Positions 4,587 to 56,389 of a stretch of 56,389 nt of DNA are shown here, in pieces. A program made the translations under genes and the position numbers. The notes under the pieces are model-generated. The model was given only the letters and a program-made list of their open reading frames with translations. It had not been told where the DNA came from and searched no databases. Numbering within the stretch: the first letter of the stretch is position 1; each line of letters begins with the position of its first letter. Origin of the DNA: a virus; IMG/VR virus record IMGVR_UViG_3300046643_000057, positions 1 through 56,389 of that record; one strand, 5' to 3'.

Positions 4587-4969
4587 GCGTTCGGGATGAC
4601 GCGTTCGGGCTCGGTGTCGGTTGCAGCGACGTGCGTCACGCCTTTATCGCTGGTCGTCCACGCGGCGATGCGCGCTTTGATGGCGCGCAGGTAGCCGAGC
4701 ATGTGACCGAACTGCGCCTGCAGTCTGTCCTGCTCGTCGTGCGCCAGCGTGTAGAACTTCTCCGCACCGATGAACTCGCCGAGCTTCTTGACCTTGTCTT
4801 CAAGGTCGTCATGCTCGACGATCACGCGGCTTTGATGGGGCTCCACGGGTTGCCCATCGGGCAGCAGGCCCGAGGGCGTGCCGATCGCGAGCGTACCGGC
4901 CCGCAGCGTTGCCTCTTGCGCTGCTGCGTGATCCGCGGCCATCGTGTTCGTGTCGTCTGAGTCGTTCAT
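4583..4969 (-). CDS. hypothetical protein
   Basis: ORF 4583..4978. I prefer ATG at 4969 because it overlaps the terL stop (ATGA). Contains a helical segment HDDLEDKVKKLGEFI...LQAQFGHMLGYLRAIKARI. Confidence 0.6.
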   Translation of the reverse strand: MNDSDDTNTMAADHAAAQEATLRAGTLAIGTPSGLLPDGQPVEPHQSRVIVEHDDLEDKVKKLGEFIGAEKFYTLAHDEQDRLQAQFGHMLGYLRAIKARIAAWTTSDKGVTHVAATDTEPERVIPNA

Positions 4970-6579
4970 CGTGTCCACACCACTTGACGGCGCGTGACCG
5001 GCCGCGCCTTTGCCGTGACGATCTTCCGATCGATCAATTCAGGGATGAAGGATAGCGCGAGCGAGTCGGCGCAGTCCGGGCTCTTGCCCCCGTTTTTCTT
5101 CATGTCCTTCTTGCTTTGAAGCTGGATGCGAAACAGCGCGTCATAGCCATAGTCGAGGCTCGTCAACTCATCGGCGAGCGCGTCGTCGTCGGGAATCTCG
5201 CCCTGCTCCAAGAAGTCGCGCATCTTCCCCCAGCACTCGGACCGCTGGTTGAAATACTGCTTGCTGTCCTTCGCCGGCTGCCCCCACATGACAGGGATCA
5301 ACGGGATCGAGAGCCCCGGCATGCGCTTCAAGGCCGAGTCGAGATCGGCGCCGTTGCCGATGGCGTCATAGACGACGCACGAACAGCCCGAGGCGTCGTG
5401 CCGATCGTGCCGCGCCCGGTCAGGATCGCCACGCAGGTATTCGAAAATCTTTCCCGCCAAGTCGGGGCCGTCGAAGCCCGAGAGCTTGACCTGCCAATGC
5501 ACCTTCAGGCCTTGGCGCAGCGTGATCACGCTGAAGTCATCCCCGAAGCGTGCAGGGTCGACTGCAAGGATTTTCTGGAACGGCGCGTAGACGTTGCCCG
5601 CGACACGGCGCCTGCGCGCGTTCGTGACGAGCTCGGGACTGATGAAGTTGGCGTAGCCCGCGCGCGGAAACTGGCCCTTGACGCGCACGCGCACGAAGTC
5701 GCTATCCTCGCCGTAGTCTTCGATCCATGCCGCGATCAAACCCTTGTTCGACAGTTTGACGTCGCGGCTGTCGACGCGGTGGTAGACGTTCCTCTTCGGC
5801 GTGCTGCAGTTCTTGAAGAACTCACCGGACGTGCGCGTCGGGTTGCCGTAGCGACACCAGACGATTTCGGTATCGGCATCGGTGAGTGCGCCGCGCGTCA
5901 CCTCCCACACCGGATCGTCGATCGAGGCTGCCTCGTCGAAGATCACGAGGATGCGTTTACCCTTGTTGTGCAGGCCCGCGAAGGCCTCGGTGTTGTTCGC
6001 CGACCAGGGCACGGCGTCGATGCGCCACGCCTTCTCACGCACGGGATCGTTCGCGATATAGATGCTCGTGGCCGTGAAAGTGAACATGCCCTTCGCGATG
6101 AAGAGGCTGTACCACTTCGAAAGCTCGGCCCACGTCTTCGTGCGTAGCTGCGTGTCGGTGTTCGCGGTCACGACACCGCGACAGTCTTCGAACGTGCTGA
6201 TCGCCCAGAGGATCAGCCACGACACTTCGGCGCTCTTGCCGATGCCGTGGCCTGAGGAAATATCCTCTTCGATCACATCGCCGAGCGTCGCGGCCCCTGC
6301 GCGCAGGCGCTGCCCGATGCGGTCGAGTTGATCGACTTGCCACTGTTCGGGGCCTTCGTTGTCTTCAAGCGCGGTGCCCGGCTCGCCCCACGGGAACGCC
6401 CATCGCACGAACCCGAGCGGGTCGTCAGCGAAGCGCGCGAGATCATCCATGATGTCGTCGAGCGCTGACCCGCGGATCGCGTCATGGCCGAGATCGGCCG
6501 GTGAGACAGGGACAGCGGCGACGATCGACGTGTAGCCTGTTGCACCGCCCGGTACGCGCGGAAGACGTGAGATCGCCAC
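4966..6579 (-). CDS. terL: terminase large subunit
   Basis: Walker A SSGHGIGKSA, Walker B KRILVIFDEA, nuclease-domain motif AVDPARFGDDFSV. The start is ambiguous: GTG at 6579 lies 1 nt after the upstream stop, and an alternative ATG lies at 6450. The track start at 6720 is unlikely. Confidence 0.9.
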   Translation of the reverse strand: MAISRLPRVPGGATGYTSIVAAVPVSPADLGHDAIRGSALDDIMDDLARFADDPLGFVRWAFPWGEPGTALEDNEGPEQWQVDQLDRIGQRLRAGAATLGDVIEEDISSGHGIGKSAEVSWLILWAISTFEDCRGVVTANTDTQLRTKTWAELSKWYSLFIAKGMFTFTATSIYIANDPVREKAWRIDAVPWSANNTEAFAGLHNKGKRILVIFDEAASIDDPVWEVTRGALTDADTEIVWCRYGNPTRTSGEFFKNCSTPKRNVYHRVDSRDVKLSNKGLIAAWIEDYGEDSDFVRVRVKGQFPRAGYANFISPELVTNARRRRVAGNVYAPFQKILAVDPARFGDDFSVITLRQGLKVHWQVKLSGFDGPDLAGKIFEYLRGDPDRARHDRHDASGCSCVVYDAIGNGADLDSALKRMPGLSIPLIPVMWGQPAKDSKQYFNQRSECWGKMRDFLEQGEIPDDDALADELTSLDYGYDALFRIQLQSKKDMKKNGGKSPDCADSLALSFIPELIDRKIVTAKARPVTRRQVVWTR

Positions 6580-7897: not shown

Positions 7898-7915
7898 CTG
7901 TATCAAGTGATACAG
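7898..7915. promoter_or_regulatory. palindromic operator-like site O1 (CTGTATCAAGTGATACAG, perfect)
   Basis: 8-bp inverted arms with a 2-bp spacer, 44 bp upstream of the ATG at 7959. One of six related sites. Confidence 0.6.
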
Positions 7916-13951: not shown

Positions 13952-14416
13952 TCAGTCTGCTGCAGCGCGGCAATGAAACATGACGATGCCGCGCTCGTCC
14001 CGGCGTCCGCGGTTGATCTCGGCCTCGGTCCAATGCGGTGTTCCGGGCAGCTTGCAATAAGGGCAAAGCCTTGGATTGGCTGCGTCCGCCAGCGGCACAA
14101 CAGACTCCATTGCTTCTTGTGCGGCATCAAGTGCAGCCGTTCGTAGGTCGAGTAAGCGACTTCTCACACCCATCGCCTCGCTCGCCAGTTCTTTAGTGGG
14201 TCGAGCAGCGCGGAGCCACGCGAATGCGGCCCTTATGCCTTCGATGTCGCTCAACTGCACGAACTCCATCTGAGTGTCAATGTTCGGCCCCCACGACTTG
14301 AGCAACGCTTCGTGCGGGGGAGCCCAGGTGTAGAACGTGATCTTCCGATCGCCGTTCCACCATTCCATCGTTGCGCAGCCGTCTTCATCGACCCCGATAT
14401 GCGGCACCTCGTTCAT
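13952..14416 (-). CDS. hypothetical protein (154 aa)
   Basis: ATG at 14416 overlaps the upstream stop (ATGA). Translation begins MNEVPHIGVDEDGCATMEWWNGDRKITFY... Confidence 0.6.
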   Translation of the reverse strand: MNEVPHIGVDEDGCATMEWWNGDRKITFYTWAPPHEALLKSWGPNIDTQMEFVQLSDIEGIRAAFAWLRAARPTKELASEAMGVRSRLLDLRTAALDAAQEAMESVVPLADAANPRLCPYCKLPGTPHWTEAEINRGRRDERGIVMFHCRAAAD

Positions 14417-15453
14417 GACTGCTCTCCCGAAGACTTGAGAACAGCGCCCCCAAACCATTCCGAAAGCGCGAATGACGTGATCGACCTGACTTCTTCGTCT
14501 GTCGCCGCTCGCGGCTCTGCGCTGACCCATTCGTCCCCGGTTGCCCAAAACACACGCGCCGATTCGTCGTCGGTCGGTGTCTTGCGCATGAGGGTGACAG
14601 TGCCGTCCAGCGCGTCGGTTTCGTGAATCTCCGAAGGCTCTTGGCTATACGATTGACCTGCCTCGTAGAGGTCGGGAGCGAGCGCGATCAGCGACGCATC
14701 GACTGGCTCGTGTTTGAAGAAACAGCCGTAGCCGGGCTTCAACGTGGCGAACTTGTACGGCTCGCCGCGCACGTCTTCGATATAGCGGTGATTGCGGAGG
14801 CGTCCTGCGACGATGGTGGACTCAAGGCCCCATTGCAAGTGATCGTGAATCATGCTGACGTTCGGAACGCGGTAGCGAGAGTCCCAAACATGCAGGCGCG
14901 TGTTGTCGCTCAAATGAAGTCGCAGCATCCCCATGCCTTGCAGAGACCACTCGAAGGCCGTCGCGTTCTCAAGAATCGCGCGAACCAAGATGCGGCTCAA
15001 TTCTGGCCTTGAAGGGGCAGTCTCCGCAGCGGGTTGCCTCTCAGGGCTGGATGGTTCGATGGGTTCGGCGCGCCAATCGAACGCCGCCCATTCTTCTGCC
15101 AGTGCATCCGGCATGTAGCCTTTGCGGTCGGCCCGATCAAGCGCATCCATCAGGTCACCGAAGTTCTTCACCAGAACAACTGAGAATCCTTCAGGGATTG
15201 GTGCCACCGGCTCTCCAGTGATCGCCCGATCCACGCGGCCAGCCAGCATCCTCGCCAGCTCCTCTGGTGAGAGCGGCTCAAGAATCCCGTAGCTGCTCTC
15301 GCATTCCTTGTTGATGTCGAGTGCCCCCTCACTCAATGCAGTCGCAGCCTCACGCATGACGCGCTGGGCGTCGCCGCTCTTGCTTTTGAGCAGGCCGCAG
15401 TCGTCCATGATCAAGGCAAGCTCCATCAGCCTCTTGGACAGTTGTGTCGTCAT
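14413..15453 (-). CDS. hypothetical protein with C-terminal cupin-like metal-binding motifs
   Basis: 346 aa. ATG at 15453 overlaps the regulator stop. IHDHLQWGLESTIVAG resembles cupin motif 1 (HxH...E...G), and a later ...PSEIHETD supplies a possible second His. Confidence 0.6.
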   Translation of the reverse strand: MTTQLSKRLMELALIMDDCGLLKSKSGDAQRVMREAATALSEGALDINKECESSYGILEPLSPEELARMLAGRVDRAITGEPVAPIPEGFSVVLVKNFGDLMDALDRADRKGYMPDALAEEWAAFDWRAEPIEPSSPERQPAAETAPSRPELSRILVRAILENATAFEWSLQGMGMLRLHLSDNTRLHVWDSRYRVPNVSMIHDHLQWGLESTIVAGRLRNHRYIEDVRGEPYKFATLKPGYGCFFKHEPVDASLIALAPDLYEAGQSYSQEPSEIHETDALDGTVTLMRKTPTDDESARVFWATGDEWVSAEPRAATDEEVRSITSFALSEWFGGAVLKSSGEQS

Positions 15454-15880: not shown

Positions 15881-15909
15881 TTGACAAGCTCGTATCAAGT
15901 GATACACAC
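15881..15909 (+). promoter_or_regulatory. sigma70-like promoter with operator-like site O3 (TCGTATCAAGTGATACAC at 15890-15907)
   Basis: Consensus TTGACA at 15881-15886. The palindrome occupies the spacer and -10 region. Lies 36 bp upstream of the ATG at 15945. Confidence 0.55.
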
Positions 15910-24467: not shown

Positions 24468-24493
24468 CTCTGTATCACTTGATACGTTAGGAT
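24464..24493 (+). promoter_or_regulatory. sigma70-like promoter with operator-like site O4 (CTGTATCACTTGATACGT at 24470-24487)
   Basis: TTGACT at 24464-24469, an 18-nt spacer filled by the palindrome, and TAGGAT at 24488-24493. The ATG at 24500 follows. Confidence 0.6.
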
Positions 24494-24499
24494 GACGAC

Positions 24500-25171
24500 A
24501 TGCTGATCGACACATGCTCATGGGATCACCCCGGCGCCGATGCCTACACAGGTTCGGCGACTGCCGCGATCTACGCGATGGCGCCCGACATTCCGGTCCG
24601 CGTCAAGCGCGTGTTCGCCGAGAGGGCCGAGCGTCACGAGGTCGACGACGTGGTCTACATCGACCGCGATTCGATCCGCGGCAAGTACGCCTACGAGCCC
24701 GAGATCAGTTTCATGGCGTTCGGCAGCAAGGGCCGAATCTGCGCCAACGTCACCCGCAACAAGTGGAGCCCCGACCATGTCGAATCGGCGATCGTCATCT
24801 GCGAGCAAGGGTGGTGCGTGGCCCGGCCCTCTGTTTGCAACAACTGGTCCCTCGTCACTCGACACGAGCCTGCCGGCCCTGCGGCCCCTCCGGTCGCTCT
24901 TCTCGCACCTCCTGAAGCCTTCGGCCCTCCTGCGTCCGAAGTCGGAGCACCCGGGCCTACCCCCTTGCTTCTGCGCGACGTGCCGCTCGAGGCGCAGCCG
25001 GGAGAAGGTGACGGACCATCCGCGCCTCTCGTGCGCGGACCTGTGTTTCTGTCCGGTCTGCCTGTTCTTGTCGAGCCCGTGACGCCGGTCCCTGAGCCCA
25101 CGGTGCTCTGGCTGATGATCGTGGGTCTCGTCGCAATCGCATGGAAAGTGGGCAAGCGCTATGACCGATGA
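24500..25171 (+). CDS. PEP-CTERM sorting-domain protein (MHFG-family-like)
   Basis: The C-terminus VPEPTVLWLMIVGLVAIAWKVGKRYDR has a PEP motif, a TM helix and a basic cluster. The N-terminal domain CSWDHPGADAYTG...ISFMAFGSKGRICANVTRNKW...CEQGWCVARPSVCNN resembles the MHFG family as I recall it. Confidence 0.75.
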   Translation: MLIDTCSWDHPGADAYTGSATAAIYAMAPDIPVRVKRVFAERAERHEVDDVVYIDRDSIRGKYAYEPEISFMAFGSKGRICANVTRNKWSPDHVESAIVICEQGWCVARPSVCNNWSLVTRHEPAGPAAPPVALLAPPEAFGPPASEVGAPGPTPLLLRDVPLEAQPGEGDGPSAPLVRGPVFLSGLPVLVEPVTPVPEPTVLWLMIVGLVAIAWKVGKRYDR

Positions 25172-25424
25172 CGACAAGATCAAGGCCGCGCGCAAGGCGC
25201 TCCGCAAGATCGCGAACATGAGCGAAGGCGTCGTGAAGACGACCGCACTCGATGCCCTCACGATCCTCGGCCATCGCGAGAAGTTCCGGCAGACCACCGC
25301 GCTCGACCGCCGCCATGTCCTCGAGCGCACCGACCTATCGGTGATCGAGGTCGCAGCAATGCTCGGTCTGAGCGAGAACGTGGTGCGCAAGATTCGGTCG
25401 GACGCTTGGGGACGGCGTCTGTGA
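25161..25424 (+). CDS. small HTH protein
   Basis: C-terminal LSVIEVAAMLGLSENVVRKIRSD is helix-turn-helix-like. Confidence 0.6.
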   Translation: MTDDDKIKAARKALRKIANMSEGVVKTTALDALTILGHREKFRQTTALDRRHVLERTDLSVIEVAAMLGLSENVVRKIRSDAWGRRL

Positions 25425-25810
25425 AGCTCTACGCGACCTTGTGGGATCGGCTCTGCGCGAACATCGTGATCGACGAGCTCGGCTGCTGGATTTGGATCGG
25501 GCCGACACGGCGCCACGGTGGCGGCGATCGGCCGATGATCACGATGCGCGTAGCCGGTGGCGGTCGTGCGACGCAGCCGAAGAACTACAACGCCGCGCGC
25601 ATCATGTGCGAGCAGGTCCACGGCCCCGCGCCGGGGCCAGAGTACGACGCGTCTCATCTGTGCGAGGACGAGTGGTTGTGCATCTGCCCTGATCATGTGA
25701 TTTGGGAGACGAAGAAAGAGAACGCGGCGCGGCTCACGGCCAAGCGCCGGCTCGAGGCTTTCTGCGACCCGTTCGTGCGCGGCGTGGTGACGACTGTCTG
25801 CCCGTTCTAG
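25421..25810 (+). CDS. HNH endonuclease
   Basis: GTG overlaps the upstream stop. Contains GCWIWIG...SHLCEDEWLCICPDHVIWETKKEN (His-Me finger pattern). Confidence 0.7.
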   Translation: MKLYATLWDRLCANIVIDELGCWIWIGPTRRHGGGDRPMITMRVAGGGRATQPKNYNAARIMCEQVHGPAPGPEYDASHLCEDEWLCICPDHVIWETKKENAARLTAKRRLEAFCDPFVRGVVTTVCPF

Positions 25811-26682: not shown

Positions 26683-28124
26683 GCAAGCCTTTCACGCCGC
26701 GTGAGTACGGCCACCTCATCGTCGATCACATCGTCGAGCACCCGCGCTGCGCCGTGTGGGCCCCGATGGGCTTCGGGAAGACCGTCAACACGCTCACCGC
26801 GCTCGACACGCTCGACGTGATGCACGGTAGCGTCTGGCCCGCTCTCGCACTCGGTCCCCTGCGCGTCGCGCGCAAGGTCTGGTCCGAGGAGGCGCAGAAG
26901 TGGGATCACACCGCAGGCCTGCGCGTGAGCAAGGTCATCGGCACCGCAGAGGAGCGCATCGCCGCACTCCTGCGGCCGGCTGAAATTTACGCGATGAATT
27001 ATGAAAACGTCGCGTGGCTCGTGCACTACCTGAAGAGCGTTAAGCGGATGCCGTTCCGCACGATCATCAGTGACGAAGCACGGCGGCTCAAAGCCCACCG
27101 AATCAAGCAGGGCGGCGTGATGACATCGGCGCTCTCAGAGCTTGCGTGGCACTCCAAGATGAAGCAATTCATCGAGCTCACCGGCACGCCTGCACCGAAC
27201 GGGTTGAAAGACCTTTGGGGGCAAATGTGGTTCCTTGATCGAGGCACACGGCTCGGTCTCACCTACGACAGTTTCGAAAACCGTTGGTTCGCCTACAAGC
27301 GAATCCGCGACGCGATCCACGCGCACAAGACCCATATCCAGACCGTCATCCACCCGCACAGCGACCAAGAGATTCACAGTCTCGTCGCTGACCTGTGCCT
27401 GAGCCTGAAGGTCGAGGACTGGTTCGACGTGGCGCTGCCGATCTTCATTCAGATTCCGGTCGACATGCCCAAAGAGGCGCGGCGCCATTACCGGGAAATG
27501 GAGCGCGCGCTTTTCACCCAGATCGAAGGCCACGAGATCGAGGCTTTCGCGGCAGCCGCGAAGTCGCAGAAGCTCCTGCAGCTTGCCAATGGCGCTGCCT
27601 ACCTCGATCCCGATGTCGAGAGCGACGAAGACCCACGGGCGCGCGCCTACAAGGTCACGCACAACGCCAAGATCGAGGCACTCGAGAGTCTTGTCGAGGA
27701 GTCGGGCGGCATGCCGCTGCTCGTGGCCTACAACTTCAAGAGCGATCTTGCCCGGCTGCTCAAGGCCTTTCCTGATGGCCGCGCGCTCAAGAGCGAGAAG
27801 GACGAAGACGACTTCAAGGCCGGGTTGATCCCGCTTCTCTTCGTCCACCCGAAGAGCGCAGGCCACGGCATCGACGGCTTCCAAAACGTGACGAACATCG
27901 TCGTCTTCTTCGGTGAGAATTGGGACATGGAACTGCGGCAACAGGTCATCGAGCGTATCGGCCCGGTGCGCCAGATGCAGAGCGGATTCAATCGCCCGGT
28001 CTACGTCTATGACATAGTCGCTGCGGACTCGATCGACGAGGATGTGCTCGCGCGCCACGAGTCGAAGAAGTCGGTGCAGGAACTGCTGCTCGCTGCAGCG
28101 CAACGAAGGAAACGCAATGGCTGA
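26679..28124 (+). CDS. SNF2-family DEAD/H helicase
   Basis: Motif I WAPMGFGKT, motif II IISDEARRLK, C-terminal helicase motif HPKSAGHGIDGFQ. GTG at 26679 overlaps the upstream stop; the track start at 26613 is also possible. Confidence 0.9.
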   Translation: MSKPFTPREYGHLIVDHIVEHPRCAVWAPMGFGKTVNTLTALDTLDVMHGSVWPALALGPLRVARKVWSEEAQKWDHTAGLRVSKVIGTAEERIAALLRPAEIYAMNYENVAWLVHYLKSVKRMPFRTIISDEARRLKAHRIKQGGVMTSALSELAWHSKMKQFIELTGTPAPNGLKDLWGQMWFLDRGTRLGLTYDSFENRWFAYKRIRDAIHAHKTHIQTVIHPHSDQEIHSLVADLCLSLKVEDWFDVALPIFIQIPVDMPKEARRHYREMERALFTQIEGHEIEAFAAAAKSQKLLQLANGAAYLDPDVESDEDPRARAYKVTHNAKIEALESLVEESGGMPLLVAYNFKSDLARLLKAFPDGRALKSEKDEDDFKAGLIPLLFVHPKSAGHGIDGFQNVTNIVVFFGENWDMELRQQVIERIGPVRQMQSGFNRPVYVYDIVAADSIDEDVLARHESKKSVQELLLAAAQRRKRNG

Positions 28125-28341
28125 ATTTCACCTTTGGTCGAAAGACAACCTCGTGAAGTTTGCCGAGGAGGCGACCGTCGTGCTCATCCAGAAAGACGCG
28201 CGGATCGTGCAACTCGAAAAAGACCTAAAAGTTGTAAAAGAGGCTTGGCGTCAAGCGGTATCAAGTGATACAGTTCACGAATGGACAGCATCACCCCCAC
28301 ACAGTACGCAGCCGGTTTCCTCGCCTTCGCGTTCATCGTGA
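28117..28341 (+). CDS. hypothetical coiled-coil protein (74 aa)
   Basis: ATG at 28117 overlaps the helicase stop. The C-terminal part runs across operator O5 and the next gene start, so the true end is uncertain. Confidence 0.45.
   Translation: MAEFHLWSKDNLVKFAEEATVVLIQKDARIVQLEKDLKVVKEAWRQAVSSDTVHEWTASPPHSTQPVSSPSRSS
28256..28273. promoter_or_regulatory. operator-like site O5 (CGGTATCAAGTGATACAG)
   Basis: Ends 7 bp upstream of the ATG at 28281, the first gene of the GT/MTase module. A possible TTGGCG-18-TACAGT promoter overlaps it. Confidence 0.5.
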
Positions 28342-28478
28342 TTGGCCTCCTGGCTTGGGCCTGCCACAAGGCACCCGAAGCACCACCGGATGAGTTTTTC
28401 TTCAGCGACAGCGATATCGATGAGGCCTACGCCGACACGATCCCTGCCGACTTCGCAGACACACGGCCGCCACGATGA
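28281..28478 (+). CDS. small membrane protein (65 aa)
   Basis: One TM segment (YAAGFLAFAFIVIGLLAWAC) and an acidic tail. Its stop overlaps the next ATG. Confidence 0.55.
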   Translation: MDSITPTQYAAGFLAFAFIVIGLLAWACHKAPEAPPDEFFFSDSDIDEAYADTIPADFADTRPPR

Positions 28479-29059
28479 AAACCGCGATCGTGCTCGCGAG
28501 CGGGCCGAGCCTCACGATGGAGCAGGTCGATGCCGCGAAGGCGTCCGGTCACTTCACAATCGTCGTGAATTCGACCTACGAGATTTTCCCGACTGCGGAC
28601 GTTCTCTATGCAGGCGACTTCTTGTGGTGGAAGAGCAAGATCGCCGACGCGCGCAAGACCTTCAAGGGTGCGATGTGGACGCAAGACTCGAGCACCGCGG
28701 CCCGCTGGCCGGACGTGAAGCGCATGCGCGGCACGAACCGCGAAGGGCTCGGCAAAGAGGTGATCCACAACAACGGCAACAGTGGCGTGCAGGCGATCAA
28801 TCTCGCCTATCTGTGGGGTTACCGGCGCATCATCCTGCTCGGCTTCGACATGAAGCTCGGACCGAAGGGCGAGCGTCACCACCACGCCGACCACCCTCAC
28901 CCGATGGTGCAGCAGCAGACGTTTTCCGAGTGGCTGCACAAGCTCGAATTCTTCGCCAAGGACATCAAAGCTGTTGGCGTCGAAGTCATCAACTGCACGC
29001 CGGGGAGCGCGATGCGCTGCTTCGCCATGAAGCCCTGGCAGGAGGTGCTCTGTGCCTGA
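28475..29059 (+). CDS. MAF/CstII-like (DUF115, MptE-like fold) putative glycosyltransferase
   Basis: IVLASGPSL near the N-terminus and NNGNSGVQAINLAYLWGYRRIILLGFDM later match the Rossmann-like motifs I recall from PF01973 proteins (motility-associated factors, GT42 sialyltransferases). Confidence 0.6.
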   Translation: MKTAIVLASGPSLTMEQVDAAKASGHFTIVVNSTYEIFPTADVLYAGDFLWWKSKIADARKTFKGAMWTQDSSTAARWPDVKRMRGTNREGLGKEVIHNNGNSGVQAINLAYLWGYRRIILLGFDMKLGPKGERHHHADHPHPMVQQQTFSEWLHKLEFFAKDIKAVGVEVINCTPGSAMRCFAMKPWQEVLCA

Positions 29060-29306
29060 CGAAATCTTCTGCGCGGGCGGCTGCAAAAAGAGCCTACCCG
29101 ACACCAAGGCGGCCGAGGACGCCGGGTGGTCGTTCCTTCACATCACCGGCCGCTATCGTTGTGGTGAGTGCGAGCGCCGGCTGCGGTGGGCCTCGACGGT
29201 CGAAGGCTCTGCACCGCGCAACGAGCCTGACAAGCTGCCGCCCGACTCGATCGGCGCGCTCAAGGCGCTGCCTAAGCGCGAACCACTGAAGGAGAAGGTG
29301 CGATGA
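29052..29306 (+). CDS. zinc-ribbon-like small protein
   Basis: CAGGC...CGEC Cys pairs. Overlaps both neighbours. Confidence 0.5.
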   Translation: MPDEIFCAGGCKKSLPDTKAAEDAGWSFLHITGRYRCGECERRLRWASTVEGSAPRNEPDKLPPDSIGALKALPKREPLKEKVR

Positions 29307-29515
29307 ACCCTGACAACACGCTTTCGGCGATGGACCTGCTAGCTGTTCTCATCGCCAAATTCGGCGGTGAATCGATGGAAGTCACGATCACGCAGGTCGA
29401 CATCGCCAAAGCCTCGGGCTGCGTGATGTTGAACGGTGTGACGAAGGAGGGCGCTCTTGCCTTGAAACTGGTCACGCACATGCAGTTCAAAACGATGGTC
29501 CCCGACGCGCCATGA
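29303..29515 (+). CDS. hypothetical protein (70 aa)
   Basis: ATGA-coupled ORF. Confidence 0.5.
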   Translation: MNPDNTLSAMDLLAVLIAKFGGESMEVTITQVDIAKASGCVMLNGVTKEGALALKLVTHMQFKTMVPDAP

Positions 29516-29751
29516 GCAAGAGCCACAATCTCAAGACACTGCCGCGGTACTACGAGCCGGCTGCGTTGGGCTTGAAAACTTTCGAAGTTCGAAAGAACGA
29601 TCGCAATTTCAAGGTGGGTGACAGCGTCACCCTCAAAGAGTGGACCGGGGCTGTGTTCACCGGCCGAAATCTCGGAGTTTTCGAGATCACTTATATCCTT
29701 GACGACTTCGAAGGGCTCGCGCCCGGTTACGTCGTATTGGGTTTGCAATGA
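29512..29751 (+). CDS. DUF3850 / ASCH-like (PUA-fold) protein
   Basis: HNLKTLPRYYEPAALGLKTFEVRKNDRNFKVGDSVTLKEW matches the DUF3850 pattern (H.LK..P.yF..v..G.K.fEiRkNDRdf.vGD). Confidence 0.7.
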   Translation: MSKSHNLKTLPRYYEPAALGLKTFEVRKNDRNFKVGDSVTLKEWTGAVFTGRNLGVFEITYILDDFEGLAPGYVVLGLQ

Positions 29752-30497
29752 GAGCCGTTCTCCGCATCAGGAAAGAGCCTCACTACCGCCGACTTGCGTT
29801 CGAGCTCGGTCTGAAGAAAGTCGGTTTTCATCTCACCGAGATACCCCGGCCCGCTGACGCGTCCGACTGGCTCGTGCTGTGGAACCGGCAGGGCGCCGGA
29901 GAGCTCGAGGCCGATCTGTGGGAGAAGCAAGGCGGCACTGTGATCGTCTGCGAGAACGGGTATCTGCAGAAGCTCGACAAGACCTACTACGCGATCAGCG
30001 TGCACGGCCACAACGGGTCGGGGTGGTTTCCGGTCGACGACAGCGAAGAGCGATTCGAGAAGCTCGGTTTCGAATTGATGTCTTGGTCAGGCGATGGGGA
30101 CTACGACTTGATTTGCGGGCAACGCGGCATCGGCAGCCGCACGATGAAGAGCCCGCCGCAGTGGGCCGAGAAGCGCGCGAAGGAACTGCAAGCGCGCGGC
30201 AAGGCGACGAAGCTGCGCCAGCATCCCGGCAACTTCGTGCCTAAGGTGCCGCTTACGCGCGATCTCGAGGGCGCCGCGGCTTGCCATGTCTGGTCGAGCG
30301 CGGCCGGTGTGCGTGCACTCGTCGAAGGTGTTCCGGTCTATCACAGTGCGCCGCATTGGATTTGCGCCGGTGCCGGACCTGTCTCGCGCGGCATGATTCT
30401 CAACCGCATGGCGCACGGTCAATGGCACCACGAGGAGATCGCCACAGGCGAGCCCTTCGCGCGCATCATCGCCAATCGGAGCAAAGCGACATGGTAA
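29748..30497 (+). CDS. putative glycosyltransferase (GT-B-like, capsule KpsS/KpsC-like features)
   Basis: 249 aa. VIVCENGYLQKLDKTYYAISVHGHNG and a C-terminal HVWSSAAGVRALVEGVPVY nucleotide-sugar-side motif. Weak, motif-level only. Confidence 0.45.
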   Translation: MRAVLRIRKEPHYRRLAFELGLKKVGFHLTEIPRPADASDWLVLWNRQGAGELEADLWEKQGGTVIVCENGYLQKLDKTYYAISVHGHNGSGWFPVDDSEERFEKLGFELMSWSGDGDYDLICGQRGIGSRTMKSPPQWAEKRAKELQARGKATKLRQHPGNFVPKVPLTRDLEGAAACHVWSSAAGVRALVEGVPVYHSAPHWICAGAGPVSRGMILNRMAHGQWHHEEIATGEPFARIIANRSKATW

Positions 30498-31201
30498 CGA
30501 TGCACCCGGTCGCCGGCAAAGAGAAGAGCCGCATGCTCTGCCAAGCCTTCGCCGATGGCTGCCCGGCTGACGCGAAGGGTCATGTCTTCTACGGCGTCGA
30601 CAAGTCGAATCTCGATACCTTCAATCGTGTCAGGGCGAGCGGTGAGGACTGGTACTACGTCGACAACAGTTTTTTCGATAAGGTCCGCGGCCTGCAGTTT
30701 CGCGTCGCCAAGAACCGAATTCAAACGAAGGTGCACGGGCAGGCGATCGTCGACTTTTCCCGCTTCGAAAAGCTCCATATCCCGACGCGGCCGATGCGCG
30801 ATGACGATAAGGGTTGCGTGCTCATGGTCGAGCAATCCGAGAGCTTCATGCGCGAGATCGCGTGTGATCCATCTTGGTTCTACCGCACGATGAACGAGGT
30901 CAGCAAAGGCCCGTTTGCCGACCGCAAGATCAAGCTGCGCAAGTGGGATCGGAACAAGGAGAAGCAGCAGGCCACGCTCGTGAGCGACCTGCAGGGCGCC
31001 GCGCTCGTCGTGACGCACTCCTCAGCCGCCGCGGTGACCGCGTTTGCGCAGGGTGTGCCGATCATCGTCTCGCCGATGTCCTCGCTTCACGGCACGTCGG
31101 CAGCCGAAAGACTGCACACCTTCGGCGTCCTCGCAGAGAATCAGTGGTCCCCCTCACAGATGCGCAATGGAGACGCTTGGCAATGGTTCAACAAAAACTA
31201 G
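30491..31201 (+). CDS. putative glycosyltransferase, distant paralogue of 29748..30497
   Basis: 236 aa. WYYVDNSFFDKVRGLQFRVAKN and VVTHSSAAAVTAFAQGVPIIV parallel the neighbour's motifs. Confidence 0.4.
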   Translation: MVTMHPVAGKEKSRMLCQAFADGCPADAKGHVFYGVDKSNLDTFNRVRASGEDWYYVDNSFFDKVRGLQFRVAKNRIQTKVHGQAIVDFSRFEKLHIPTRPMRDDDKGCVLMVEQSESFMREIACDPSWFYRTMNEVSKGPFADRKIKLRKWDRNKEKQQATLVSDLQGAALVVTHSSAAAVTAFAQGVPIIVSPMSSLHGTSAAERLHTFGVLAENQWSPSQMRNGDAWQWFNKN

Positions 31202-31734
31202 GCTGGTTCAACACGGCCGGCAGGCCGGGCGACCGCACGCTCAAAGATCAACTCGTCGGACTCGACACCCTGATCGCCCGTGTGTCCGGCAAGACGGTGC
31301 TCGACGTCGGATGCGCCGAAGGTCTGATCTCGCTGCAACTCTTCGACGAAGGCGCCGTAGCGGTCCACGGCGTCGAGATCGTGCAGGGCCATGTCGACGT
31401 CGCCAACAAGTTGCGCGGCGATCGTGCGTGCACCTTCGAACAGGGCGACGCCGACCACTTCATGCCCAAGCGTCAATACGACATCGTGATCATGCTGGCG
31501 CTGTTGCAGAAGCTCAGGAATCCGACGATGGCTTGCCGCAAGTTCGCGGCCGCGGCGCGCGAACTGGTGGTGCTCCGCTTGCCACCGCGCGGCGATCCGC
31601 TCATGCTTGTGGATCAGCGCAGCGGCTACATCGAGCACGACATCCGTGAAGCGATGCTCGGCAGCGGCTTCGTGCTCGCTGACGTTGTCTCCGGTCACCT
31701 CGGCGAGCACATCAGCTATTGGGAACGCAAATGA
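31183..31734 (+). CDS. class I SAM-dependent methyltransferase
   Basis: Motif I VLDVGCAEGLISLQL, followed by VHGVEI and IVIMLALLQKL. Confidence 0.7.
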   Translation: MVQQKLGWFNTAGRPGDRTLKDQLVGLDTLIARVSGKTVLDVGCAEGLISLQLFDEGAVAVHGVEIVQGHVDVANKLRGDRACTFEQGDADHFMPKRQYDIVIMLALLQKLRNPTMACRKFAAAARELVVLRLPPRGDPLMLVDQRSGYIEHDIREAMLGSGFVLADVVSGHLGEHISYWERK

Positions 31735-32252
31735 ATGACCTGATCCCGCTTTACCGCGACATGGCCGCAGGCGGCGCGCAGTTCCTTGGCCTGAGCGTGC
31801 TGCAGCACAAAGAGCAGATCGGAAAGCTCTTCAAGCGGCACGACGTGCACACGCTGCTCGACTTCGGGTGCGGTGCCGGCAACGCCTACAAGACGGCCAA
31901 CAAGGTGCACCACGAATGGCGTCTGCGCCGCATCGACGTGACGCTCTACGATCCGGCCTTCCCGCAGCACGACAAGCTGCCGACGCCCGGCCGCAAGTTC
32001 GACGCGGTGATCTGCAGCGACGTGCTCGAGCATGTGCCCGAGGAGGAGACGCTTGCTTTCATCGAAGGCCTCTTCAGCCGCGCCAAGCGTCTCGTGTGGG
32101 CGAGCGTGTGCTGCAGGCCGGCGCGCAAGAGCTTCCCCGATGGCCGCAATCTGCACGTCACGATCCGTCCGTGGCAGTGGTGGGACGACACCTTCAACGA
32201 GGTTGCGCGCCGCCACCCCGACGTCACCTACGCGCTCGTCGAGACGCCCTGA
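31731..32252 (+). CDS. class I SAM-dependent methyltransferase
   Basis: Motif I LLDFGCGAGNAY, followed by FDAVICSDVLEHVPEEE. Confidence 0.7.
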   Translation: MNDLIPLYRDMAAGGAQFLGLSVLQHKEQIGKLFKRHDVHTLLDFGCGAGNAYKTANKVHHEWRLRRIDVTLYDPAFPQHDKLPTPGRKFDAVICSDVLEHVPEEETLAFIEGLFSRAKRLVWASVCCRPARKSFPDGRNLHVTIRPWQWWDDTFNEVARRHPDVTYALVETP

Positions 32253-32254
32253 TC

Positions 32255-32995
32255 GTGGGCATCGGAGATCAACTCATGGCGGCCGGCGAAGCGCGTCGTC
32301 TGCACAAAACGCACGGCCGCCCGGTGATGATCGTCGACCGCGCCGGGCGGCCGCAGAAGAGCGATCTGTGGACCGGTATTCCCTACATCACGCAGAGCCA
32401 CGTCGGCGGCCCGATGCGGTTGCTCAACTGCTCCGGCGTTCGACCCTATATCGCCGGCAAGACGTCGAGCAAATGGACGTGGCGCCACTTCAAGCCGACG
32501 CCGGCCGAGATCGTCTTCACGGCCGAGGAGCTCGTCTTCGCTGCACCGTTTCGTGACAAGGTGATGATCGAGCCCAACGTCAAGAACATCGGCCACACGA
32601 ACAAGGCGTGGTTCGGTGACCGATGGCTCGCTCTGTCCGAGACGCGGCAGGACTTCGTGCAGTGCGTCTCGGACCCATCGCAGTCACTGCCGCACAACGT
32701 GCTCAAGGTCATCACCCCGACGTTTCGCCACGCGCTTGCCATACTCTCGGTGAGCCGCGCTTTCGTCAGCACAGAGGGTGGTCTCATGCACGGCGCCGCA
32801 GCGACGCGCACGCCGGCTGTGATTCTCTGGTCCGAGTTCATCGCGCCTGAGATCACCGGCTACGAGACCATGACGAACCTGCGCCACGCCGGCAAGCCTT
32901 GCGGCAACCGCATGAATTGCCCCGGCTGCAGGACGTCGATGGAAGCGATTTCAGTCACCGAAGTGAGCGATGCGCTCGAAAGGATTCTCAAATGA
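32255..32995 (+). CDS. GT9-like (heptosyltransferase family) glycosyltransferase, short form
   Basis: GIGDQLMAAGEARRL at the N-terminus and FVSTEGGLMHGAAATRTPAVILW near the C-terminus resemble GT9 signatures. GTG at 32255 lies just after the upstream stop. Confidence 0.6.
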   Translation: MGIGDQLMAAGEARRLHKTHGRPVMIVDRAGRPQKSDLWTGIPYITQSHVGGPMRLLNCSGVRPYIAGKTSSKWTWRHFKPTPAEIVFTAEELVFAAPFRDKVMIEPNVKNIGHTNKAWFGDRWLALSETRQDFVQCVSDPSQSLPHNVLKVITPTFRHALAILSVSRAFVSTEGGLMHGAAATRTPAVILWSEFIAPEITGYETMTNLRHAGKPCGNRMNCPGCRTSMEAISVTEVSDALERILK

Positions 32996-33669
32996 AGCAA
33001 GTCGGCCCGTGGGCGTTCCCAGATAACGAACAGCACCTCATCGACTGGATGGCCGCACCCAAGGGCTACCTCGTCGTGAACGGTCGCCCGTCGTACCAAG
33101 GCAAGAAGCAACTGCGTTGCATGGACTTCGTGCCGCTGAAACGCCGTCGCGTCGCAATCGACGTGGGCGGGCACATCGGCCTGTGGTCGTTCAACCTCGC
33201 GCACTGGTTCGAGAAGGTCGAAGCATTCGAGCCGGTCGAGGTGCACCGTGATTGCTTTGAAAAGAACGTCTTCGAAGCGCCGGATTACCGCGGGTCGAGT
33301 GTCACGATGCACCCCTTCGCTCTCGGCGAGCGCGAGGACATGGTGACGATCCACACCTCGAGCACGAGCTCCGGCGACTCGTGGGTGAAGGGCAAAGGCA
33401 CGATCCCGATGAAGACGATCGATTCGTTCGGGTTCGAAAACGTCGACTTCATCAAGATCGATTGCGAAGGCTACGAGGAGTTCGTGCTGCGTGGTGGCCG
33501 AGAAACCATCGGCAAGCACGGCCCTGTTATCTGCGTCGAGCAGAAGCGCGACATGGCTTCGACGCGCTTCGGTCTGAAGCCGCTCGGCGCCGTCAAGCTG
33601 TTGATCGGCATGGGGTACAAGGTCGTCGCCGAGGTCAGTGGCGACTACATCCTCACACGCACGCCGTGA
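32992..33669 (+). CDS. FkbM-family methyltransferase
   Basis: VAIDVGGHIGLWSFNLAHWFEKVEAFEP ... VDFIKIDCEGYEEFVLRGG is the classic FkbM pattern. Confidence 0.8.
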   Translation: MKQVGPWAFPDNEQHLIDWMAAPKGYLVVNGRPSYQGKKQLRCMDFVPLKRRRVAIDVGGHIGLWSFNLAHWFEKVEAFEPVEVHRDCFEKNVFEAPDYRGSSVTMHPFALGEREDMVTIHTSSTSSGDSWVKGKGTIPMKTIDSFGFENVDFIKIDCEGYEEFVLRGGRETIGKHGPVICVEQKRDMASTRFGLKPLGAVKLLIGMGYKVVAEVSGDYILTRTP

Positions 33670-33914
33670 AGCTCTTCATCTTCGAGCCGCTGATCGATCG
33701 CACGGGCGGCGACTTCCGGCTCGAGGTCGGCGACGAGACCTATCACGCCGGGCAGCGGTGGGTCGTGCGCCCGCACACGGCGGTTTGCGGGCCGCAGGTC
33801 ACGACGGTCGATGGGTGGGTGGTGAAGACGTGGACGATCACGCGCCACGACGACCCTGAAGGTCTGCTCTATGGTTGGTTCGGTTTCAACGAAGTCAAGA
33901 GAGTCATGCAATGA
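33666..33914 (+). CDS. hypothetical protein (82 aa)
   Basis: GTG overlaps the upstream stop. Its stop overlaps the next ATG. Confidence 0.5.
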   Translation: MKLFIFEPLIDRTGGDFRLEVGDETYHAGQRWVVRPHTAVCGPQVTTVDGWVVKTWTITRHDDPEGLLYGWFGFNEVKRVMQ

Positions 33915-34615
33915 AGGTCTACGTTGGTTTCGACGAGCGCGAAGCTCAAGCTGCCGAGGTGGCCCGCAAGAGCCTCCTGCGTGTGACGCGCGGTGAGATC
34001 GAACCCGAGTTCATCTGCGCGGCCAAGCTCTACGATCACGGCCTCCTGTGGCGCGCGGCCGATCAGCGCGGGGGTCAGGACTACGATCTCGTGAGCAACG
34101 CGCCGCAGGCCACACGCTTCGCGATCTCGCGCTTTCTCACGCCGATGCTCGCGCAAAACGGCTTCGCTCTCTTCGTCGATTGCGACGTCGTCTTTCTGCG
34201 CGATCCACGCATCATGCTCAATGAGATCAAGGCCGAGCACGCGGTGAGCGTCGTTCGCCATCCGCACGCGGTCTACCCTAGCAGCGTCAAGATGGTCTAC
34301 CAGACGCAGACGCACTACCCGATGAAAAACGCATCGAGCGTGATGCTCTTCAACTGTGACCACGGCGCCAATCGCCGGCTGTCGCTCCGCGACGTGAACG
34401 AACGCCCCGGCCGCGACCTGCACCGGTTCTACTGGCTCGCCGAGAGCGAGATCGGCATGCTTGCGCCGCAATGGAACTGGCTCGTGGATGTGGAGCCTCG
34501 CCCGGTCGGCCTCGGGATCGCGCACATGACGCTCGGCGGTCCCTGGCTCGATGGTTGGCAAGGCGGTAGCTTCGATGCAGAATGGCGTTCTGCTGAAGAC
34601 TCGAGGGAGCTTTGA
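33911..34615 (+). CDS. GT8-like (GT-A fold, DxD) glycosyltransferase
   Basis: Contains KVYVGFDERE...RFAISRFLTPMLAQNGFALFVDCDVVFLRDP (DxD = DCD). Confidence 0.6.
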   Translation: MKVYVGFDEREAQAAEVARKSLLRVTRGEIEPEFICAAKLYDHGLLWRAADQRGGQDYDLVSNAPQATRFAISRFLTPMLAQNGFALFVDCDVVFLRDPRIMLNEIKAEHAVSVVRHPHAVYPSSVKMVYQTQTHYPMKNASSVMLFNCDHGANRRLSLRDVNERPGRDLHRFYWLAESEIGMLAPQWNWLVDVEPRPVGLGIAHMTLGGPWLDGWQGGSFDAEWRSAEDSREL

Positions 34616-34617
34616 TC

Positions 34618-34794
34618 ATGGCAAAGAACTGGATCGCTGGCGCAACGAAAAACAAAGGCGGCTTGCACAAGTCGCTCGGTGTGCCCGCTGGCAAGACGAT
34701 TCCGAAGGCAAAGATCGCGGCTGCCGCGAAGAAGCCCGGCAAAGTCGGCAAGCAGGCGAAGCTCGCTGAGACGCTCGAGAAAATGAAGAAGTAG
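34618..34794 (+). CDS. small basic protein (DUF3008-like)
   Basis: GAGGGAG SD lies 8 nt upstream of the ATG. Translation: MAKNWIAGATKNKGGLHKSLGVPAGKTIPKAKIAAAAKKPGKVGKQAKLAETLEKMKK. Confidence 0.55.
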   Translation: MAKNWIAGATKNKGGLHKSLGVPAGKTIPKAKIAAAAKKPGKVGKQAKLAETLEKMKK

Positions 34795-35181: not shown

Positions 35182-35607
35182 TCAGGTCGTAGCCGGCGTG
35201 GTCGTCACGGTGCCATCGGTCGCGACGGTCGACGTCGACCCATCCGAGAAGGTCGTGGTCACGCTGCCGTCCGGGTTCGTCACAGGCGTGCCGACGACGG
35301 TTGGCGCGCTTGGCGCAGGAGCCGGGCTCGGCGCCGGAGCGGCCGGCGTGTTGGCAGTCACCGCGGCCGCGAGCGAGGTTGCGTTCGCGGTGATGCTGTC
35401 GGCTAGAGCCTGCAGCGCGGTCGGATCGGTGCCGGCGGCAGCGATCAGGCCCGGGATCGCGTTGAGCAACGTGATCGCGGATTGGTTGACGGTGGTCTCT
35501 GCCTTGACGGCAGCAATGAGGTTGTCGAGTGCGGACATAATTTTCCCTTGAGAGTGGAGGACGACTGCCATGAAGAGCAGCAGGAGGACGGCGACTAAGA
35601 CGATCAT
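35182..35607 (-). CDS. membrane-anchored Thr/Pro-rich protein (last gene of late operon)
   Basis: ATG at 35607 overlaps the Rz stop. N-terminal TM MIVLVAVLLLLFMAVVL. C-terminus PAAPAPSPAPAPS...TTTFSDGSTSTVATDGTVTTTPATT. An alternative ATG at 35538 has an AAGGGA SD. Confidence 0.6.
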   Translation of the reverse strand: MIVLVAVLLLLFMAVVLHSQGKIMSALDNLIAAVKAETTVNQSAITLLNAIPGLIAAAGTDPTALQALADSITANATSLAAAVTANTPAAPAPSPAPAPSAPTVVGTPVTNPDGSVTTTFSDGSTSTVATDGTVTTTPATT

Positions 35608-55752: not shown

Positions 55753-56389
55753 TCAAGGCGCCGGGTTGGCTGACTTGATGGTCACCACGGCGGTGCCGAC
55801 GTAGTTCGGGCCGATGACTTCGTAGCCGAAGACCATGAGGCCCCGGATGATGTAGCCGAAGTCGTTCGGGTTGTCGATCATCTGGCACTCGACGATCTGG
55901 CTCGCGAACGTCAGGCCGGCGCTGTGGCCGAACATGCAGTACACGGCCGGGCCGGGCGAGGTCTGCTTGAGCAGATTGCGCGACTGGTACATGGTGAAGC
56001 GATCGATCTCGCCCACCTTGCCGTTGCGGATGATCGAGACACCGTCGCCGGCCAACGACGCGATGCGAAGATCGCTCTTCTTGATCGCGGCGATGAACGC
56101 GGGGGGAGCCACGAACCACCGGCCCTCGTCCGACACGTTCTGCTCGTCGAGAACGGTGCCACAGTCGACGATGAAATCGACAATGTTGTTCTGATCGAGC
56201 ACGACCGGGTTCGACGAGTCGCCCAGGTTGATCGAATCCGAGTCGGCGCCAGCGGTGGTGCCGCTGTTCTGCGCCGACACTTCGGCCGGGATCGTCTCGA
56301 GCATGTCCGCGTCGGCGGCGATGCGCAACTGGATCGAACCGTCGTTCGCGAACACGTCGGCCAAGTCGAGGTCCGATTGGCGCGAGTCG
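55753..56389 (-). CDS. major capsid protein, C-terminal part (continues upstream via the junction into 591..128)
   Basis: ORF 55753..56364 has no real start of its own. It is in frame with the 1..591 segment, for a combined 366 aa. Confidence 0.85.
   Translation of the reverse strand, partial: DSRQSDLDLADVFANDGSIQLRIAADADMLETIPAEVSAQNSGTTAGADSDSINLGDSSNPVVLDQNNIVDFIVDCGTVLDEQNVSDEGRWFVAPPAFIAAIKKSDLRIASLAGDGVSIIRNGKVGEIDRFTMYQSRNLLKQTSPGPAVYCMFGHSAGLTFASQIVECQMIDNPNDFGYIIRGLMVFGYEVIGPNYVGTAVVTIKSANPAP
56263..56389. repeat. second copy of the 127-bp terminal overlap
   Basis: Identical to 1..127. Confidence 0.95.

Follow-up and report, generated by a model that had tools for sequence, protein, structure and literature searches.

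The chlorovirus PBCV-1 makes methylated capsid glycans with enzymes of its own, and to our knowledge virion glycosylation is established in mycobacteriophages and giant algal viruses and not in phages of Gram-negative bacteria. According to PMC11600133 (citing Freeman 2023), Cluster O mycobacteriophages modify their capsid and tail-tube proteins with an O-methyltransferase and three glycosyltransferases. Here we describe a block of fourteen plus-strand open reading frames (ORFs; g1 to g14, positions 28281-34794) that directly follows the SNF2 helicase gene in the virus record IMGVR_UViG_3300046643_000057, whose whole stretch of 56,389 nucleotides (nt) we call the window. Like the mycobacteriophage clusters (Cluster O, Corndog-like; Cluster F, Che8-like), the block sets phage glycosyltransferases in tandem with O-methyltransferase genes, whose products would likewise act in the cytoplasm on host nucleotide sugars. 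The mycobacteriophage clusters hold two to four transferases of ordinary families and belong to a Gram-positive-like host (Mycobacterium), whereas the present module encodes five CstII/Maf-, KpsC-, GT9- and GT8-like transferases together with three methyltransferases, and is known here from its genes alone. [quoted passage not shown] A preliminary description of the window had named no characterised equivalent of this gene composition, and our sequence and literature searches found none either, but the block is not unique, as uncharacterised homologous versions occur in Caulobacter jumbo phages. The module is an uncharacterised but widespread phage glycan-assembly system, of the same kind as the known glycosylation clusters and differing from them in enzyme families, size and host type.

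The relatives comprise at least ten contigs, namely L001-L008 and L012 from IMG/VR and L013 from an NCBI metagenome (GCA_040384245.1, JAWVHA010001241.1). In ten related contigs eight enzyme genes (g2, g6 to g11 and g13) follow the helicase gene in an unchanged order, at 33-75% amino-acid (aa) identity, with the exception that a Methyltransf_24 gene occupies the g9 slot in L013. Synteny at this level of identity argues that the block is not made of chance ORFs. L012 carries the eight core genes alone, back to back. The block is missing from L011, a relative further removed that shares the helicase. The preliminary description had treated the whole 6.5 kb as one module; the eight enzymes bear this out, but the other six genes fall outside the conserved unit. 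Five of the latter (g1, g3, g4, g5 and g12) are absent from the ten related contigs, and the transmembrane (TM), zinc-ribbon, DUF3850 and small ORFs are lineage-specific passengers. Extra genes inserted in the related modules were considered as further pathway genes and turned out to be mostly HNH homing endonucleases instead (L004 8815-9423, L005 5018-5587, L008 6526-7020, L013 16445-16924). L002 has a radical SAM/SPASM enzyme between its FkbM and GT8-like genes (13958-14890; Pfam 3e-12 and 6e-10). The L013 module carries additional TylF and Methyltransf_24 O-methyltransferases, which flank an extra 246-aa protein (14345-15085) with HxD...H residues and a Pfam KdoO match at E 6.4e-4, below the cut-off; given this weak match and the lack of support from PDB searches, we did not adopt the KdoO assignment and keep it as a hint.

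Most of the argument turns on the transferases, of which g2 and g6 were modelled with AlphaFold2 (AF2); all Foldseek searches rest on these two models. The first core gene, g2 (28475..29059, +), encodes a 194-aa CstII/Maf-like transferase of the MptE-like, GT42-like fold. It matches phrog_4603 'alpha-2,3-sialyltransferase' at 8.4e-43 and scores 21.3 bits against the Pfam MptE-like family PF01973, under the cut-off of 34.6; many of its homologues at 50-70% identity have a precomputed PF01973 match. For its model (predicted local distance difference test, pLDDT, 92) the best Foldseek match is CstII, a Campylobacter sialyltransferase (2x61_B; E 9.4e-6, probability 1.0, TM-score 0.56), followed only by matches at E>=1e-3. 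By analogy with these enzymes it is plausible that g2 uses a CMP-activated ulosonic acid donor.

At the centre of the module stand two paralogues, g6 (29748..30497, +; 249 aa) and g7 (30491..31201, +; 236 aa), both core genes, for which we found no match in Pfam, NCBIfam or PHROG. They are 22% identical over a full-length alignment, with 15 columns invariant across both subfamilies. The model of g6 (pLDDT 94.4) matched retaining beta-Kdo transferases, namely KpsC, WbbB and KrkA, in all 28 PDB matches with E<1e-3, and its BFVD matches include a Tetraselmis virus 'capsule polysaccharide biosynthesis protein' and a protein of CcrColossus. Sequence-only PDB searches with g2, g6 and g13 gave nothing significant (KpsC appeared only at E 0.55), and a scan of genome contigs with g6 returned no match. 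Judged by its model, g6 has the unusual, heavily modified GT-B fold of KpsC (GT107), WbbB (GT99) and KrkA (GT140). Unlike the beta-Kdo transferases, g6 and g7 are single-domain proteins of about 250 aa that have no detectable sequence-level similarity to them and lack the Asp nucleophile. In the beta-Kdo transferases the Gln of the QXXXD motif binds the Kdo carboxylate and the Asp is the covalent nucleophile (PMC9587256, PMC10148158, PMC12887879); this Asp is absolutely conserved and defines the double-displacement mechanism (PMC10148158, PMC12887879), and the His of an HP motif protonates the phosphate of the leaving CMP (PMC9587256). At the nucleophile site g6 reads Q125-R-G-I-G, with Gly for Asp, and g7 reads Q-S-E-S-F, with Phe for Asp. 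The invariant Gln125 and H158-P159 are retained in g6 along with a conserved upstream acidic residue, E69, and the spacing from Q125 to H158 is similar to that from Q228 to H265 in WbbB (PMC9587256): in sequence terms, a conserved R-x-H-P-G lies 33 residues past the Gln in the g6 subfamily and 37 in WbbB. In the g7 subfamily no His is conserved at the site of the HP motif. From these residues we infer that g6 would act by single displacement (inverting) and not by the double displacement of KpsC and WbbB. The family of g6 and g7 comprises 4,491 clusters at 50% identity, nearly all of them single-domain proteins of about 250-280 aa, and is probably a new, large and unannotated family of glycosyltransferases.

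The remaining two transferases are also core genes. The product of g10 (32255..32995, +) is a short, 246-aa GT9 (heptosyltransferase)-like protein with a C-terminal Cys cluster, whose GTG start at 32255 is set by a conserved MGxGDxLM N-terminus rather than by the upstream in-frame codons. Its family profile matches WaaF (1psw, 3.3e-6) and TIGR02195 (2.6e-6). The protein itself is sub-threshold for Pfam GT9 (13.9 bits vs a cut-off of 22), whereas its orthologues in L013 (44.5 bits) and the Caulobacter phage CcrBL9 (gp522, 28.9 bits) lie above it. Compared with the two-domain GT-B enzymes of about 320-350 aa, it is short; only the C-terminal nucleotide-binding half aligns (WaaF residues 250-343), and the N-terminal GxGD motif is present. 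The product of g13 (33911..34615, +; 234 aa) is a DxD nucleotide-sugar transferase that matches phrog_28018 at 1e-38 and has more than 6,200 homologues. Its F70, R74, P78 and D90-C-D92 do not vary among 16 sequences whose identity goes down to 31%, and the DxD and H205..G209..P211 stay unchanged even in phage homologues of 30% identity that carry the annotation nucleotide-diphospho-sugar or galT-like transferase. No Pfam or NCBIfam match was found for g13, and its best PDB match, the GT8 structure 5gvv, is not significant (E 0.41), with the alignment falling on the FxRFxxP...DxD stretch. The earlier naming of g13 as a GT8-like DxD transferase therefore holds for the invariant DxD and the GT8-type motif but finds no significant Pfam or PDB match behind it, and we use 'GT8-like' as a label for the motif only.

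The three methyltransferases are core genes whose families were recognised above the cut-offs. The 183-aa g8 (31183..31734, +) is a class I S-adenosylmethionine (SAM) methyltransferase with matches to Methyltransf_31/25/23/11 at 1e-9 to 6e-8 (38.2 bits vs 27), and its nearest NCBIfam families, all below cut-off, are small-molecule or oligosaccharide O-methyltransferases (UbiG, MetW, MftM). The 173-aa g9 (31731..32252, +), likewise of class I, matches Methyltransf_23 (2.6e-8; 34.2 bits vs 27) and phrog_24759 (3.5e-24). The 225-aa g11 (32992..33669, +) belongs to the FkbM family, as seen from Pfam Methyltransf_21 (1.1e-12; 48.9 bits vs 22.7), the NCBIfam model TIGR01444 (1.6e-18; 67.5 vs 37.7) and phrog_8156 (8e-28). 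Nearly all gene identities proposed in the preliminary description were in this way supported by profile or fold searches.

Homologues in cultured phages and in prophages place such enzymes in a different genomic context. In CcrBL9, the contiguous genes gp527-gp522 are homologues of g2, g6, g7, g13, g9 and g10 at 26-36% identity (gp523 being the g9 homologue and gp522 the g10 orthologue), and they lie between tail-fibre/tail genes and the endolysin. The cluster is also found in CcrSC, CcrPW, CcrColossus, BL47, C1, C2, J4 and RB23. It differs from the module described here in having six genes instead of eight, in lacking g8 within the cluster and in having its FkbM gene about 35 kb away; it sits after the tail-fibre genes of a 320-kb siphovirus, where it is annotated as hypothetical and is uncharacterised. 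A comparison of the large structural proteins of the window with the CcrBL9 tail proteins beside the cluster found no homology. Pseudomonas phage D3 (NC_002484.2) has a g2 homologue directly after its major head gene and a methyltransferase a few genes on, in the head-tail region. The g2 match in D3 (4837-5555) covers orf6.5 and orf7, so that the record may split this gene wrongly or carry a frameshift in it. Another D3 gene, orf12 (275 aa), was considered as a g10/GT9 homologue for its GxGD N-terminus and C-terminal Cys cluster, both seen by eye, but was dropped as hhalign gave a probability of 8% and Pfam no match. The g2 family is annotated pmgO/pmgP in P1-like phages and 'structural protein' in PAJU2 and Eowyn. 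In three alphaproteobacterial prophages (Mesorhizobium, a Rhodobiaceae metagenome-assembled genome and Nitratireductor), g2 homologues lie amid genes for the terminase, portal, protease, major head and tape measure, and all three (3/3) are accompanied by a phrog_1962 glycosyltransferase. The podovirus MW202512 has an FkbM gene and a g13 homologue between its capsid and tail genes. Linkage to virion genes is thus present for the homologues in CcrBL9, D3, MW202512 and the three prophages, and is not seen in the lineage of the window, where the cluster follows the helicase. Among isolates, g2 homologues come only from phages of Gram-negative hosts and from the Tetraselmis virus. In the cyanophage S-SCSM2R a g13 homologue lies two genes from kdsB/kdsA (PMC12801897); the intervening ORF262 and ORF263 were examined as possible relatives of g6 and g7 and are unrelated.

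What the phage could supply for such a pathway was assessed on the whole window, which is a complete genome, circular or circularly permuted, of about 56.26 kb; its ends share an exact direct repeat of 127 bp (1-127 = 56263-56389), an assembly overlap. Families were scanned with Pfam and PHROG over all larger ORFs outside the module (about 65 in total). No integrase or recombinase family was detected among them, nor a thymidylate-synthase (ThyA) homologue, a TET/JBP dioxygenase or a DNA methyltransferase family, and no genes for sugar-nucleotide synthesis, lipid carriers, flippases, polymerases or export were seen in the complete genome. The scans agree here with the preliminary description, which had reported no integrase, no nucleotide-sugar synthesis and no base-hydroxymethylating or TET-like gene.

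For the donors, the sequence of steps, the acceptor and the function we infer the following. Working in the cytoplasm, the five soluble glycosyltransferases would add sugars one by one to an acceptor that is soluble or still being assembled, and the three SAM-dependent methyltransferases would O-methylate these sugars, all without a lipid carrier, flippase or polymerase. The donors would be host precursors of the lipopolysaccharide (LPS) core, that is CMP-Kdo (or another host CMP-nonulosonate), ADP-heptose and UDP-hexose. This host pool is the most likely source because the phage has no sugar-nucleotide genes and because of the types to which g2, g6/g7, the GT9-like and the GT8-like transferases belong; three of them (g2, g6 and g7) share folds typical of CMP-ulosonic-acid enzymes. 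The Maf-like g2 would start the chain on Ser/Thr and the remaining transferases would extend it. It is a plausible initiator because Maf-type enzymes can, according to 10.1101/2020.06.03.131540, attach Kdo or N-acetylneuraminic acid (Neu5Ac) directly to Ser/Thr. The KdoO-like protein of L013 may hint at Kdo as a component sugar, and the closeness of the S-SCSM2R g13 homologue to kdsB/kdsA may hint at Kdo as a donor. The limited range of g2 homologues among isolates, Gram-negative hosts' phages and the Tetraselmis virus, is a further hint about the donors. The TylF/Methyltransf_24-type enzymes in relatives suggest that it is sugars that are O-methylated. The acceptor would be one or more virion proteins of the phage itself, as suggested by the homologues that repeatedly lie inside late virion operons, and progeny particles would carry a methylated, diversifiable glycan coat.

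Several observations speak against glycosylated virions. Throughout this lineage the module lies behind the SNF2 helicase gene, on the replication strand and not among the structural genes, which would fit early expression or enzymes directed at DNA. The donors are assigned purely by analogy of folds, and g6 and g7 lack the Asp nucleophile that defines beta-Kdo transferases, across 14 and 78 aligned family members. With neither the Asp nor a conserved HP His, g7 may follow a different chemistry or be non-catalytic. No acceptor protein was identified: the Ser/Thr-rich protein encoded at 35182-35607 was considered and rejected, since its homologues in L008 and L012 do not have the Ser/Thr tail. 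Finally, we know of no glycosylated virion reported for a phage of a Gram-negative host.

The preliminary description had left the substrate fully open between virion proteins, the host envelope and DNA. This can now be narrowed, since the surroundings of the genes in distant relatives speak for virion proteins and the lack of a base-activating enzyme speaks against DNA, although the other readings keep some weight. The one we take most seriously, while considering it doubtful, is that the enzymes remodel the host envelope: at the cytoplasmic face of the inner membrane they would modify the lipid A-core, a capsule linker or another glycolipid with Kdo, heptose, hexose and methyl groups, which could exclude superinfection or stop progeny from sticking to debris. 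The set of folds does parallel that of LPS-core and capsule-linker enzymes (KpsC/WbbB-like, WaaF-like GT9, GT8-like), LPS-core transferases are likewise soluble or peripheral, and two g13 homologues are named 'lipopolysaccharide biosynthesis glycosyltransferase' by the Joint Genome Institute (JGI). The placement among early or middle genes would leave time for export, and in this phage the block opens with a small TM protein, g1. Set against this, g1 is not conserved, and no flippase, GtrA/GtrB, Wzx/Wzy or ABC transporter was seen in the genome. The homologous clusters of D3-like prophages and Caulobacter phages lie in late structural operons, which are silent in lysogens, and a lytic cycle would leave little time for new LPS to reach the outer membrane. 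Classical serotype conversion does not fit, because the genome scans found no integrase or lysogeny function; besides the absence of any integrase or recombinase family, none of the eight core enzymes (0/8) has a TM segment, as would be looked for in a serotype-conversion cassette.

The module adjoins replication genes (helicase, PolA), as phage DNA glycosyltransferase clusters often do, and like the known clusters for sugar hypermodification of DNA it would take its sugars, Kdo and heptose among them, from the host; phage enzymes have put Kdo or heptose on 5-hydroxymethylcytosine (5hmC; 10.1101/2023.12.21.572611). A base decorated with Kdo, heptose or hexose plus methyl groups, blocking restriction, is nonetheless the least probable of the readings considered here. 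All the known routes need a C5-methyltransferase with a 5mYOX/TET enzyme, or a ThyA homologue giving 5-hydroxymethyl or 5-hydroxy (5hm/5ho) pyrimidines (PMC13326640), before a glycosyltransferase can act, whereas the scans of the larger ORFs returned no base-activating enzyme. The transferase folds differ as well, g2 and g6 being CstII-like and KpsC-like and not T4 beta-GT-like or JGT/TarP-like; the methyltransferases are of small-molecule or sugar type and not of DNA methyltransferase families, and the homologous clusters elsewhere lie within virion operons. A similarly improbable reading, if a little less so, is that the target is a host protein (flagellin, pilin or S-layer) or a small molecule, so that motility or receptor display is altered or a glycosylated natural product is made. 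The most familiar of the MptE-like enzymes are the Maf flagellin glycosyltransferases, and the module resembles flagellin glycosylation islands in combining an MptE-like transferase with methyltransferases (including the FkbM type) and further glycosyltransferases for cytoplasmic O-glycosylation of protein. Unlike the large, multidomain Maf proteins, however, g2 is a minimal domain of 194 aa, and neither nonulosonate synthesis nor a flagellin is encoded here. As for small molecules, methyltransferases of the FkbM, TylF and UbiG-like kinds are found in natural-product pathways too and L002 has the radical SAM/SPASM enzyme within its block, but that gene is present in one relative only and the window holds no polyketide synthase, non-ribosomal peptide synthetase or precursor-peptide scaffold genes. 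Neither target explains why homologues are repeatedly linked to capsid and tail genes.

The genes of the block are tightly packed: of its 13 junctions, 11 are overlaps of 4-19 nt and two are gaps of 2 nt. Tight coupling had been claimed in the preliminary description and is confirmed, except that the count of thirteen genes given there should be fourteen, the number that the description itself had listed. Immediately upstream, a 74-aa ORF that we call gA (28117..28341, +) overlaps the helicase stop by 8 nt, is translationally coupled to the helicase and overlaps g1 out of frame. Its first 50 or so residues are conserved at 51-55% in L001, L005 and L007, and it has no family match. Inside gA, 9 nt upstream of g1, lies the perfect palindrome GTATCA-AG-TGATAC (O5, 28258..28271). 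Exact copies of GTATCA-NN-TGATAC occur four times in the window (7900-7913, 15892-15905, 24472-24485 and 28258-28271) and degenerate ones three times (7801, 13531 and 15751), making seven against 0.45 expected by chance, a number that none of 100 shuffles reached. Every exact copy precedes a plus-strand start codon (7959, 15945, 24500 and 28281) by 9-45 nt. The exact copies also share a weak similarity upstream, CGAAAA..AATTC. Judging from this arrangement, the palindromes are probably binding sites of a phage regulator. The site ahead of the block is therefore real and part of an enriched set, but the further claim that the module is 'operator-gated' is to be taken as a hypothesis, because the palindrome lies inside the helicase-coupled gA, no sigma-70-like promoter was found near 28258, and among some ten relatives only the closest, L008, keeps the palindrome ahead of the module. 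An Rfam search of the block matched no structured-RNA family.

Among the accessory genes, g1 (28281..28478, +) encodes a 65-aa protein with the only TM segment in the module (hydropathy maximum 2.35, residues 10-28) and has no homologue in the related loci. The 84-aa g3 product (29052..29306, +) is a putative zinc-ribbon protein with four Cys (CxxxC...CxxC), has no family match and is absent from the related loci. Two hypothetical proteins, g4 (29303..29515, +; 70 aa) and g12 (33666..33914, +; 82 aa), have no family match and are not conserved at the related loci. The 79-aa g5 product (29512..29751, +) has a DUF3850/ASCH fold (Pfam DUF3850 3.8e-23; phrog_986 7e-33) and is absent from the related modules. 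The operon closes with g14 (34618..34794, +), a semi-conserved passenger encoding a lysine-rich basic protein of 58 aa (15 K/R vs 2 D/E). In L004 and L008, too, the module is followed by a copy of it, at 59-72% identity; the protein has no family match and may bind nucleic acid.

Elsewhere in the window, the plus strand also encodes a DUF2800 nuclease, an Enc34-type single-stranded DNA-binding protein (SSB) and, besides the SNF2 helicase, a family A DNA polymerase that is 49% identical to that of BPP-1; an HNH homing endonuclease gene lies upstream of the helicase gene (25406-25810). The minus strand encodes the primase, terminase, portal, SU10-type adaptors, an internal virion protein, the major head protein (whose gene is interrupted by the window ends) and a holin-endolysin-spanin cassette. 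The Ser/Thr-rich protein mentioned above is encoded on this strand by the gene after the spanin (35182-35607); 53% of its final 30 residues are Ser/Thr, and its true start is likely an internal Met at residue 24. The phage looks virulent. The identical sequence is present both as a JGI contig and as a Logan contig, and a DNA-level search against known phages gave no near match. The sole nucleotide similarity to isolate phages is a stretch of about 60-107 nt within g11 (33440-33546), 75-82% identical to Caulobacter jumbo phages, which may hint at the host clade or at gene exchange. A search for tRNA genes as a clue to the host found none; the clues available lean to Alphaproteobacteria. A further hint may come from a 223-aa protein (24500-25171, +) with a C-terminus made of VPEP, a hydrophobic helix and KVGKRYDR (Pfam PF07589, E 4.6e-4). 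This end is a PEP-CTERM-like exosortase sorting signal, which is unusual for a phage protein and may point to an exosortase-bearing host; no obvious N-terminal signal peptide was seen in it. The gene starts 14 nt past one of the exact palindrome copies.

The module is widespread, with thousands of metagenomic sequence clusters, and its presence in cultured Caulobacter phages makes it testable at the bench. An ambitious extension of virion glycosylation, which we consider unlikely, is that Gram-negative hosts' phages, ranging from podoviruses of 56 kb to Caulobacter jumbo phages of 320 kb, cover their virions with an O-methylated Kdo-heptose-hexose glycan resembling the LPS inner core, built directly on protein from host LPS precursors by enzymes that include the g6/g7 family as inverting Kdo transferases not recognised before, derived from the KpsC/WbbB fold but lacking its nucleophile and having no Pfam model. 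If true, this would be the first virion glycosylation system in phages of such hosts, and the particles would mimic the host surface at the molecular level. Whatever the acceptor, g6 and g7 represent a naturally occurring form of the beta-Kdo transferase fold that lacks the Asp of the covalent intermediate, informative for the mechanism and the evolution of these enzymes. Should the module modify DNA or LPS instead, it would represent a new route for that process. If it glycosylates virions, a large unannotated family would join the catalogue of glycosyltransferases, and adsorption, host range, environmental stability and the immune recognition of therapeutic phages would all be affected.

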